Below, one piece after another: positions 26,501 through 32,913 of a stretch of DNA of 64,000 nt. The position numbers and the translations under genes were made by a program. Under the pieces are notes generated by a model. That model was not told the origin of the DNA. It made no database searches and worked only from the letters and a program-made list of their open reading frames with translations. Source of the DNA: Oscillospiraceae bacterium (GTDB lineage: Bacteria; Bacteroidota; Bacteroidia; Bacteroidales; Bacteroidaceae); assembly GCA_963624905.1 (NCBI GenBank), contig CAVFRG010000006.1, positions 3,897 to 67,896 of the forward strand, in the 5' to 3' direction. The stretch's first letter is position 1. The number at the start of each line of letters is the position of its first letter.

Positions 26501-28062
26501 GCGGCCCCGACTCGTTCATCCAGGACGAGATACGCGACATCATGCGCCGCCACGGCAAGCCCTTTACACTCCTGAAGATAGACGACGTGAGCAACATCGG
26601 AAGCCTCAAGCTGCGTGTACGCTCACTCGTGGAGAGCCTTCGGGGAGTGAAGAGTGAAGAACGAAGAGTGAAGAGTGAAGAACGAAGAGTGAAGAATTCA
26701 AATGCAGAATCTTCATCTTCAAAGCAAGACGATTCTTCACTCTTCACTCCTCACTCTTCCCTTAAATCCTCTCCACTCCCCCAGACGAAAGTCTTCACCA
26801 ATGCTGACCGCCACCGCAAGATTCTCGCCCCGTTCATGACGGAATACCTTACCCCCATCATTCCCCCTATCCTCAAGTTGATAGGCTACGACGTGGAGGT
26901 GTTGCCGATGAGTGATGAGGCGAGTGCCGAACTGGGACTGAAGTTTGCCAACAACGAGGTGTGCTACCCTGCCACCCTCATCGTGGGCGACATCATCAAG
27001 GCATTGAAGTCGGGCAAGTACGACTTGCAGAACACGGCAGTGGTGATGAGCCAGACGGGCGGGCAATGCCGCGCCACCAACTATGCCGGACTCATCAAGC
27101 GCGCCATGGTTGACAACGGATTCCAGGACGTACCACTCCTTACCTTAGGTGTGACAGCCTCGACAAGCGAGGCCAACGGCAGCACCGACGACAAGCAGGA
27201 CTACAACGAGCAGGAGGGTTTTAACATACCCTGGCTCAAATACTCGCAGATCATCATCACCGCCATTCTCTACGGTGATGCCGTCAACGAGATGTACAAT
27301 GCCTGCATCGTGAGGGAGCGCAAGCCGGGCATCGCCAAGGAGTTGCGTGACAAATACATGCGCCTCATCGACGAACCGATAGCCCGCAACTCAGCCAAAG
27401 GACTCATCAAACTCTTAGGGCAGGCTGCCGGGGAATTCGACACGATGACACTCGACAAGGACGTTCCGCGAGTGGGCATCGTAGGCGAGATTTTCCTGAA
27501 GTTCAATCCTTTCAGTCACCAGTTCCTGGAGCAGTACATCATCTCCAAGGGCATCGAGGTGGTACCGCCGCTATTGGCACCCTTCTTCCTGCAGGAGTTT
27601 GTCAATGTGGAGGTACAGAAGCACATGCGCCTCAGTTGCAGCAAGGTACCCGATTTTGTGGTGAAGGGAGCCTACAAGGGACTGGTGGGCCGCCGACTGA
27701 AACAAGTAAACAAGGCTGCGTCCAGGTTCCGCTACTTCCGCAAGTTTACCAACATCTACGACGATGCCAAGGAAGTGGACGGACTGGTATCGCTTGCGGC
27801 ACAGTTTGGCGAGGGATGGCTCTTGCCCGCCGACATCGTGGGCTACATACGCGACGGTGTGGACAACGTCATCTCGCTGCAGCCCTTCGGCTGCATCGCC
27901 AACCATGTCATCAGCAAGGGTATAGAGAAGCGGTTGCACGAACGTTTCCCGCGCCTCAACCTCCTCTCGCTCGATTTCGACTCCGGCGTCAGCGAGGTAA
28001 ATGTCACCAACCGACTGCTTCTCTTCCTCGACAGCATTGCTGCTTATCGCCCTCAAAGCTAA
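23560..28062 (+). CDS. Acyl-CoA dehydratase activase-related fusion protein (two BadF/BcrA-type ATPase domains plus dehydratase-like domains)
   Basis: GLDVGSTTAK/IDIGGEDAK/MNGNCAGGTG and GIDSGSTTTK/LDIGGQDMK/LNEACSSGCG, plus FGCGPD, GQCRA and QPFGCIANH. Confidence 0.92.
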   Translation: MTQQGNALYIGLDVGSTTAKIVVVNEKKQTVYSKYERHNARVSELVSRYFKEIYELTGNAPTRICITGSVGMATAEQLQAEFVQEVVAASIYARHAHPEAKALIDIGGEDAKVIFFKDNGGMELRMNGNCAGGTGAFIDQMSVLMGVDNQRMSELAMKATHIYPMAARCGVFAKTDIQNLMARNLPEEDIAASIFHSIAVQTVVTLSHGMTFQAPILLCGGPLTFLPALRKAFCEYMQMPASDFIVSDNSNTIPAMGCAYRAMDTNAPFTNLSDLTARLNRETDTEWNSRLQPLFRNEEEHRQWLRSKERFATDTKPLQKGRQRIVIGIDSGSTTTKIVAVRLNSQDTKESPNSAESVCNKDIVFTNYRLNLGNPIKAVADGLNALKQEAEHCGAELEIAGTCSTGYGEELIKAAFNLDSGIIETMAHERAAASLMPDVSFILDIGGQDMKAIFVEKGAVVRMELNEACSSGCGTFIQTFANNMGYDVADFAQMACQSKAPCDLGTRCTVFMNSKVKQVLREGASVADISAGISYSVIKNCLYKVLKLHAGDNLGKKIVVQGGTMRNDSVVRAFELLTHTEVARSNMPELMGAYGCALHAAANYRDTEPNGTIRQIDDLLALAHYETKQLQCHGCENHCYVSRYTFAGGNRFFSGNKCERVFNNKGENDIKGENVYTRKYRMLFERPTEADHSTSADTHIIIGIPRILNMYEEYPFWNALLRAAGFDVILSTDSTFTKYENALNTVMSDNICFPAKLAHSHLKELNENPKVDRILMPYVVYEHNDDPDNTLNSFNCPVVSGYSDVIKSVINLQKPLDAPVINFANAQLLEKQIIDYLKSLGIGKKKAKAAMQKAILAQEEYCRNIKEKNLEILTCKPITTDYKSAEHKLTILLAGRPYHTDPLVQHKLSEMIANLGVNVISDDIARNIPGTEDEATAPSRCVAETYLVKQWAYMNRIMKAAQWVAEQGNNVHLVQMTSFGCGPDSFIQDEIRDIMRRHGKPFTLLKIDDVSNIGSLKLRVRSLVESLRGVKSEERRVKSEERRVKNSNAESSSSKQDDSSLFTPHSSLKSSPLPQTKVFTNADRHRKILAPFMTEYLTPIIPPILKLIGYDVEVLPMSDEASAELGLKFANNEVCYPATLIVGDIIKALKSGKYDLQNTAVVMSQTGGQCRATNYAGLIKRAMVDNGFQDVPLLTLGVTASTSEANGSTDDKQDYNEQEGFNIPWLKYSQIIITAILYGDAVNEMYNACIVRERKPGIAKELRDKYMRLIDEPIARNSAKGLIKLLGQAAGEFDTMTLDKDVPRVGIVGEIFLKFNPFSHQFLEQYIISKGIEVVPPLLAPFFLQEFVNVEVQKHMRLSCSKVPDFVVKGAYKGLVGRRLKQVNKAASRFRYFRKFTNIYDDAKEVDGLVSLAAQFGEGWLLPADIVGYIRDGVDNVISLQPFGCIANHVISKGIEKRLHERFPRLNLLSLDFDSGVSEVNVTNRLLLFLDSIAAYRPQS
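26646..26762 (+). repeat. Palindromic heptamer-armed element inserted in frame (117 bp)
   Basis: Seven AGTGAAG/AACGAAG units, a 40-bp core and four CTTCACT-like units. Encodes VKSEERRVKSEERRVKNSNAESSSSKQDDSSLFTPHSSL. Confidence 0.9.

Positions 28063-32913: not shown

Follow-up and report, generated by a model that had tools for sequence, protein, structure and literature searches.

How can the same palindromic repeat come to lie, in frame, within two unrelated enzymes? The question is raised by a stretch of 64,000 nucleotides (hereafter the window) of contig CAVFRG010000006.1, assembly GCA_963624905.1, in which a fused acyl-CoA dehydratase activase and an S9 peptidase both contain an insert made of AGTGAAG/AACGAAG heptamers, a short core and the same heptamers inverted. 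In relatives, the same arms and inner tails enclose a gene for a four-helix-bundle protein. Our preferred reading, which we consider probable, is that the inserts are ends of this cassette, copied into tolerant loops as gene-less half-elements, mostly singly and likely by short-homology recombination. The ends shared with the cassette, the mostly solo arms, the stepwise, swapped and collapsed states at the same loops, the open frames and the tolerance of the loops are all observed directly.

The two inserts and their host genes

An arm is here a run of heptamer units, and the tails that join arm to core are of two types, End A (AATYCAAWNGC) and End B (CAAGANRATT). The host genes and the parts of their inserts, in window positions, are as follows.

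23560-28062, plus strand: fused acyl-CoA dehydratase activase (BcrAD_BadFG x2, DUF2229, HGD-D-like; Pfam and NCBIfam), 1500 residues, intact open reading frame (ORF)
26646-26694, plus strand: left arm of the activase insert, seven AGTGAAG/AACGAAG units, with AACGAAG at the positions where TGA would be in frame
26695-26705, plus strand: End-A tail of the activase insert, AATTCAAATGC, the same 11 bases that stand 3' of the cassette left arm at loci L102, L103 and L104
26706-26721, plus strand: filler of the activase insert, a close match to the filler of the S9 insert in relatives G070, G085 and G195
26722-26734, minus strand: End-B tail of the activase insert, AAGCAAGACGATT on the plus strand, resembling CAAGAGAATT 5' of the cassette right arm
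26735-26762, minus strand: right arm of the activase insert, four inverted units, 4/28 mismatches against the left arm
30613-32913, plus strand: S9 peptidase (DPPIV_N and Peptidase_S9; Pfam and NCBIfam), 766 residues, nearest solved structures 4Q1V and 2D5L
31728-31755, plus strand: left arm of the S9 insert, four units (AGTGAAG + 3 x AACGAAG)
31756-31789, plus strand: core of the S9 insert, comprising End-A tail (31756-31766), 10-bp filler and End-B tail (31777-31789)
31790-31817, minus strand: right arm of the S9 insert, four inverted units, 8/28 mismatches against the left arm

An earlier note on this DNA had described one and the same element in both genes, and on re-reading its positions, arm numbers and core lengths matched exactly. 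The activase insert (26646-26762, 117 bp) consists of 7 units, a 40-bp core and 4 inverted units and encodes VKSEERRVKSEERRVKNSNAESSSSKQDDSSLFTPHSSL; the S9 peptidase insert (31728-31817, 90 bp) consists of 4 units, a 34-bp core and 4 inverted units and encodes VKNEERRTKNSNASSEKQDDSSLITHHSSL. The former lies in a variable inter-domain linker, directly after residue ~1027. The peptidase is intact, with GWSFGG (S636), D711 and H743 all retained, and its insert falls at a five-residue turn in 2D5L and at a longer loop that 4Q1V has of its own. An AlphaFold model of the peptidase, poor in quality (predicted local distance difference test, pLDDT, 41.9; three-row alignment), puts the insert between two strands, in weak agreement with the homologue alignment.

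Both inserts are predicted to form RNA hairpins (-47.8 kcal/mol, z -5.98 for the activase; -24.9 kcal/mol, z -3.77 for the peptidase), and in neither case were any of 200 shuffles as good. Allowing <=2 mismatches, a 15-mer spanning the joint of arm and core occurs 4 times in the window, where 0.13 occurrences would be expected. No target duplication was found in the flanks of either insert or at the junctions of the copies in an MFS transporter and a leucyl-tRNA synthetase (LeuRS) described below. Rfam gave no match at the gathering threshold, the 13 matches at E<=1 all being far below it and 12 of them generic miRNA hairpins.

Dispersed arms and the four-helix-bundle cassette

The source genome (G000), that of a Prevotella-type bacterium, is an assembly of 2.72 Mb, 85.6% complete. 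It holds 122 arms of the AGTGAAG/AACGAAG type, with none in the reversed genome used as a control, so that the earlier suggestion of a multicopy repeat without a gene of its own is borne out. Arms are 2-15 units long, four units being present in 65/122, and 92/122 have the ending AATYC. Twenty-one lie within 11 genes and 101 between genes; where an intergenic arm has a gene on its outer side (n=95), it is in 83 cases sense and behind the 3' end of that gene, and 45 of these 83 are within -4 to +6 bases of the stop codon. Ten co-directional arms provide the TGA stop of the preceding ORF. The nine host genes outside the window encode, by Pfam, a GT2/SpoIID fusion, a DUF4837 protein, MazG, anthranilate synthase I (TrpE), an ABC permease, an ABC ATPase, an FAD protein, an MFS transporter and a MoxR ATPase.

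Most arms stand alone. Only 16 converging pairs (7 coding, 9 intergenic) are present, accounting for 32/122 arms, and their cores, 1-116 bp in length, are unrelated except for the two tail types, which run from A to B in 6/7 coding pairs. The earlier picture of a single palindromic unit, like the Rickettsia palindromic element (RPE), is not supported by this count, the swaps of single arms described below or the lack of target duplication. A rule by which coding copies have the weaker hairpins was not confirmed, stems having 2-8 mismatches where the pair is coding and 0-8 where it is intergenic. Parallel arm families of 8- and 9-base words also occur in G000. The strand bias of the 9-mer family is reversed (39 antisense vs 11), and Rho termination was therefore dropped as the cause of the bias.

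In relatives, the same arms and inner tails (AATTCAAATGC ... CAAGAGAATT) flank a four-helix-bundle gene of PF05635/TIGR02436, the 23S-rRNA intervening-sequence family, in a cassette placed between genes of an operon. At L102-L104 the order is arm-AATTCAAATGC, ORF and GGACAAGAGAATT-arm, the arms and tails being those of the window inserts, and shared arms and tails recur at L128-L133; these cassettes are longer, ORF-enclosing copies of the kind which the earlier note had proposed looking for. Of 68 four-helix-bundle loci in relatives, 67 have 7-9 base arms, mostly on both sides (weak cases were scored by eye), and L195 has none. L103-like proteins are accompanied by AGTGAA(G/A/T)-type arms in 12/12 named records, including Segatella copri and Prevotella merdae (with AATGAAG-rich arms at L138 and L139), and in 30/30 loci from genus genomes (best 30 of 55 matches), two sets that overlap in some loci. 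The sole four-helix-bundle gene of G000 (TIGR02436) lies between inverted AATGTTA arms.

Cassettes of the L103 clade occupy about 13 different junctions, between stop and start codon, among them what we take from the encoded peptides to be argG-argC, argC-argD, nusA-infB and dxr-rseP. G000 has solo arms at two junctions that hold a whole cassette in relatives and none at five others checked. The predicted structure of the cassette protein (pLDDT 95.8) is close to 2RLD, with fold matches to 2RLD and 2GSC, and these two, each with five chains, are the only solved structures matched by its sequence profile. The cassette ORF matched no transposase family, and the flanks examined contained housekeeping-type genes and no reverse transcriptase.

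Some cassettes show features of their own. In L001, L098 and L102-L104 the variant unit is placed differently in the two arms, one having the order xxyx and the other xyxx, which makes the cassette stem imperfect. At one junction (L179, L184, L187, L188, L189, L200), presumably sdhA-sdhB, three 8-base words occur with different protein subclades in different species, which suggests long co-drift in place or repeated reuse. At L136/L282, L285, L286, L291 and L293 the upstream gene lacks a stop ahead of the arm, reads on into it and acquires a short extra C-terminal tail. L132 and L134, titled Lachnospiraceae, have a Prevotella-like argG-cassette-argC region, through mis-binning or transfer.

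The same sites in relatives, and the reading frame

The earlier note had expected orthologues to lack the segment as a clean insertion. At a distance this stood, since the S9 linker has 11 residues in 19/22 non-self loci parsed vs 37 in G000; among close relatives it did not. Of 28 closer S9 orthologues parsed, 5 have the full element (39 residues), 2 have remnants with outer units only, 20 have a non-repeat loop of 22 or 27 residues and 1 has a short linker. The insert takes the place of a loop that was variable already. On a tree of the flanks of 30 S9 genes, the 6 carriers are unclustered and need 5 changes (160/500 shuffles were as low), so the loop allele appears to move between lineages separately from its flanks.

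Nor is the activase insert a clean one: two further orthologues are arm-free, and arm-free linkers have 42-57 residues vs 72 in G000. Of the 16 orthologue genomes compared, one carries just the left arm, one has none, three have other words and most have AGTGAAG on the left and ATTCAAC on the right; only G007 matches G000, and three left and three right words occur in all. The G000/G007 core is nearly that of the S9 insert of relatives (87% identity over 97 bases), and the whole pair, or its right half, was therefore presumably copied there. The likeness of the activase filler to the relatives' S9 filler similarly suggests that a whole pair may have been copied, either from one locus to the other or to both from a common donor.

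For eight of the nine other hosts (all but the ABC ATPase), orthologues were looked for in 5 of the relatives. MFS orthologues have the left arm only (4/4), to which G000 adds a 36-base right arm; TrpE orthologues have both arms, the left only, a collapsed remnant, none or an unrelated insert; FAD-protein orthologues have the right arm only, and at the corresponding position MoxR orthologues have different 7- and 9-mer words. In all of these states, from a single left or right arm to a full pair, another repeat word or a collapsed remnant, the frame is open, and the claim that genic copies are kept with an open frame held at all coding sites examined. Empty sites often have a GTGAAG-like Val-Lys or Leu-Lys seed, which is suggestive. 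A separate 30-base hairpin (peptide KQRSAAEGKA) is found within or beside heptamer arms at L069 (G401 activase) and L169 (G048 MoxR), in frame in both genes, and is intergenic in G000 (C7, C63).

Coding copies also share private variants. The 20-base variant TCATCACTCATCACTCTTCA of the S9 right arm is found elsewhere in G000 only in the MFS-gene copy (G000:C65:9782), and a 20-base filler is common only to the MFS and TrpE copies; because they are shared in this way, these variants point to coding copies as probable donors. Among 60 metagenome loci with two arms, 47 are in ORFs (S9 28, helicase 15, LeuRS 3, WecG-family 1) and 13 at two intergenic sites. The LeuRS copy consists of End A, 3 bases and AGGACAAGATGATT, that is, the cassette minus its interior, and while it accounts for 3/60 of these loci it is present in 0/23 genus orthologues. 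A 500-bp cassette intermediate in this essential gene is unlikely. At L310 (G344 LeuRS) a different heptamer array (ACTCAAC-type) lies in the same loop, in frame.

The shared frame and homologous peptides emphasized earlier are real, but they derive largely from the positions of TGA in the arm. Each AGTGAAG unit includes a TGA, and a four-unit arm with one middle AACGAAG is open in exactly one frame. Because that frame is unique and xxyx is already the commonest form among four-unit intergenic arms (22 of 49, with xyxx in 6), the common peptide VKSEERRVKN is largely a filter effect. AACGAAG as a coding adaptation was rejected on the same intergenic count and because a variant unit in the middle is also found in cassettes with other words. 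Although the inverted arm is free of stops, Q(D/E)(D/N)SS(L/F) is read in 7/8 G000 copies and in all four coding sites of the metagenome set, a uniformity that fits descent from coding donors. Lengths divisible by three, which the earlier note had pointed out in both window inserts, depend in general on the choice of arm edge; they occur in 5/7 coding and 3/9 intergenic pairs of G000, and the two coding pairs of other lengths are still in open frames.

Origin of the loops and related repeats

If the inserts are copied cassette ends, decayed cassettes would leave ends (a heptamer arm and an 11-13 base tail) that serve as donors, and short-homology copying would set an arm at a target with few matching bases, such as the GTGAAG of Val-Lys codons. 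A genic copy would be kept only if it is free of in-frame TGA and lies in a loop able to accommodate 10-30 additional hydrophilic residues. The hairpin would be completed by a second arm arriving downstream, after which the finished pair could be copied whole, pass from strain to strain by short-patch recombination or collapse by in-frame deletion. The insert peptides would be passive, disordered loops. More tentatively, the cassette protein may bind the word of its own arms; such binding would account for the match between word and protein clade.

This match is seen in a tree of 63 distinct proteins, in which the arm word needs 19 changes vs 45.3 when shuffled and the proteins of the AGTGAAG group fall on a single branch (100/96), although relatedness and the search itself inflate the signal and arm labels were assigned partly by eye. 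The arm pattern is present in 214/400 genus genomes. Hand counts gave at least 10 arm matches in 30/54 genomes with an L103-like protein and 67/346 without. Within 30 loci, at least 10 dispersed AGTGAAG arms were present in 11/14 genomes with an AGTGAAG-armed cassette and 3/16 with an AGTGAAA/T-armed one; the significance of these counts is overstated, kin being non-independent.

These caveats weigh against an origin from cassette ends, and so do several other points. The genes of G000 come from a crude ORF model (1797 genes). The cognate cassette protein was not found in G000 at its 85.6% completeness, and no match to it was obtained in G238, G178 and G078 (229, 107 and 105 arms; 90-94% complete) or in G070 (100% complete, 26 arms); arms can therefore evidently last in its absence, and it may have played its part only in the past. 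Neither an instance of copying nor an enzyme for it was observed. We infer the direction from cassette to dispersed arms, but the reverse is conceivable, with cassettes having taken up arms that were already there. Loss and not gain may have given the one-arm states, parsimony favouring gain only for the MFS gene, and the near-identical activase and S9 cores show that movement of a whole pair is possible.

Whole movement is the essence of the strongest alternative, in which a transposase-like enzyme moved one palindromic miniature element, a gene-less cassette, and copies were retained where their length preserved the frame. We consider this unlikely. The 87% identity of the activase core to the S9 core of relatives, the A-to-B orientation of 6/7 coding pairs and the LeuRS copy, which resembles a complete mini-cassette at a site empty in 23/23 genus orthologues, would all suit it, but converging pairs make up only 32/122 arms and have unrelated cores, one-arm and mixed-word states occur at the same loops, and target duplications are lacking. 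No Y1 transposase (PF01797, IS200/REP-type) was found in G000, an incomplete genome, and viral contigs gave 0 matches to the two-arm pattern.

Somewhat more doubtful is a mechanism by which an Avd-like cassette protein holds arm-bearing RNA and a host reverse transcriptase writes arms into transcribed DNA. The predicted model of the protein matches bAvd (4DWL) with a TM score of 0.72 and complexes of diversity-generating retroelements (DGRs) with 0.73-0.74; the arm word tracks the protein clade, and 83/95 intergenic arms are sense to the preceding gene, 45 of those close to its stop. The Avd matches are weak, however (E 0.08-0.3; E 0.08 and 16% identity for 4DWL), the fold is common and the sequence profile reaches only 2RLD and 2GSC. 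The strand and position bias could stem from selection and is opposite in the 9-mer family, and no reverse transcriptase adjoins the cassettes in the flanks examined. Two reverse-transcriptase matches in G000 (C37:26559-26954 and C18:501-686) would favour such copying, but both are partial, near contig ends and unlinked.

We give little credence to a regulatory role, in which the arms, coding copies included, would be selected binding sites or RNA structures that act on these messages through RNase III, a host factor or the cassette protein itself. The fixed four-unit length of 65/122 arms and their tight placement at gene junctions are what such sites would show; RNase III cuts the stem of a related rRNA insert, according to PMC4990558, and PMC2700814 and PMC4679880 propose regulatory roles for similar repeats. 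Against this stand fast gain, swap and collapse at the same sites, hosts without a common pathway, imperfect coding stems (2-8 mismatches) and a cognate protein that is often not found. Independent polymerase slippage, giving low-complexity arrays alike by chance, is very improbable and was refuted as an origin by the non-repeat tails common to the arms (AATYC in 92/122), the empty reversed control, the identity of arms and tails to cassette ends and the shared private variants, and it remains a modifier of existing arms, whose unit number varies from 2 to 15 (7 vs 4 in the window inserts).

Other repeats in the window include four solo arms of the heptamer family.

18731-18761, minus strand: solo arm, same heptamer family, intergenic
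22437-22499, plus strand: solo arm of 9 units, beginning 2 bases past the stop of an 849-residue gene (19886-22435)
39498-39525, plus strand: solo arm of 4 units, with a stop codon on one side and a start codon on the other
40931-40969, plus strand: solo arm with the End-A-like tail AATTAAAATGC, shortly 5' of a start codon

Arms of the 8-base word GGTAAAAA lie at 35713-35748 and 42560-42611; the genome has 99, of which 85 are sense after a gene end, and a genome scan found 0 in coding sequence. The same word flanks four-helix-bundle genes in L096 and L112. A GC-rich palindrome of the TAGGAGGTACGGCGCC type, resembling repetitive extragenic palindromic (REP) sequences, is present at 33021-33055 and 42630-42709 and has 189 genome matches, nearly all intergenic, often combined with 8-mer, 7-mer and 9-mer arms as mosaic spacers. 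The C-terminus of an RlmL-like methyltransferase (29066-30601) has an Arg/Gly/Lys-rich repeat with a 66-base duplication (30445-30565).

Of the known systems, the S23p intervening sequences of 23S rRNA are akin to the parent cassette, which is likewise a PF05635 ORF between inverted heptamer ends; that of Coxiella burnetii has a 28-bp stem with tandem heptamers (GACAGAT) before the ORF (PMC4990558). The present cassettes differ in lying between protein genes and not in 23S rRNA, and the window copies in being ORF-less and inside coding sequence, where an RNase III cut would break the mRNA instead of leaving a working product. RPEs (PMC10969869) likewise derive from repeats, form hairpins and add peptides in frame to unrelated housekeeping genes, and they too have intergenic copies, and in-frame insertion in unrelated genes with absence from orthologues is seen here in 11 G000 genes and their arm-free orthologues. 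The RPE is a unit of ~150 bp with a conserved peptide, whereas here there are ~40-bp heptamer half-elements with variable filler, secondary pairing, word swaps and a traceable cassette.

Gmet_H4 and the paired 7/8-mers of Geobacter metallireducens (PMC2700814) include four tandem heptamers in and between genes and opposite-strand pairs at variable distance; their words are different, and they are interpreted there as regulator sites, with no link to a four-helix-bundle cassette in the part consulted. TAACTGA repeats of Beggiatoaceae, Cyanobacteria and Bacteroidetes (PMC4679880), and with them the heptamer LSSRs of Mrazek 2007 as summarised in that paper, are comparable as short heptamer arrays; the former lie at junctions, and stop codons within the word govern whether they occur in ORFs. 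They differ in that the consulted text gives no source element and places them mostly before starts, whereas the present arms lie for the most part after stops and in mid-protein loops.

[quoted passage not shown] As in MITEs generally, inverted ends are shared with a longer ORF-bearing element (the L102-L104 and L128-L133 cassettes); unlike them, there is no target-site duplication and the parent ORF is PF05635/TIGR02436 and not a transposase. DGR Avd (4DWL; PMC6182149) has a similar four-helix fold and is pentameric, and 2RLD and 2GSC have five chains each; beyond its low identity and weak E-value, no adjoining reverse transcriptase, template repeat or adenine mutagenesis was seen here. A connection of PF05635 cassettes with heptamer repeats, dispersed or coding, was not met with in the literature searched, which took in neither subscription papers nor supplements (those of PMC2700814 and PMC4679880 may bear on the point).

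The inserts bring together heptamer repeats of obscure origin and S23p/PF05635, a family with solved structures and no assigned function. Identity of the inserts with cassette ends, and the match between cassette word and dispersed word, make word-specific binding of RNA or DNA by the protein testable. The loops themselves are new protein sequence assembled stepwise from non-coding repeats in enzymes, including a tRNA synthetase, of a common gut and rumen genus. If the cassette protein is a bystander, they would be an RPE-like curiosity in a new group. A bolder proposal, which we regard as a long shot, is that PF05635 proteins drive, in a sequence-specific manner, a widespread selfish system that lacks a transposase, each clade recognising its own 7-9 base word and seeding cassette ends Avd-style with a borrowed reverse transcriptase or repair polymerase at stop codons and in protein loops. 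If true, this would give bacterial heptamer repeats a source, and new loops would keep being supplied to proteins, essential enzymes included.

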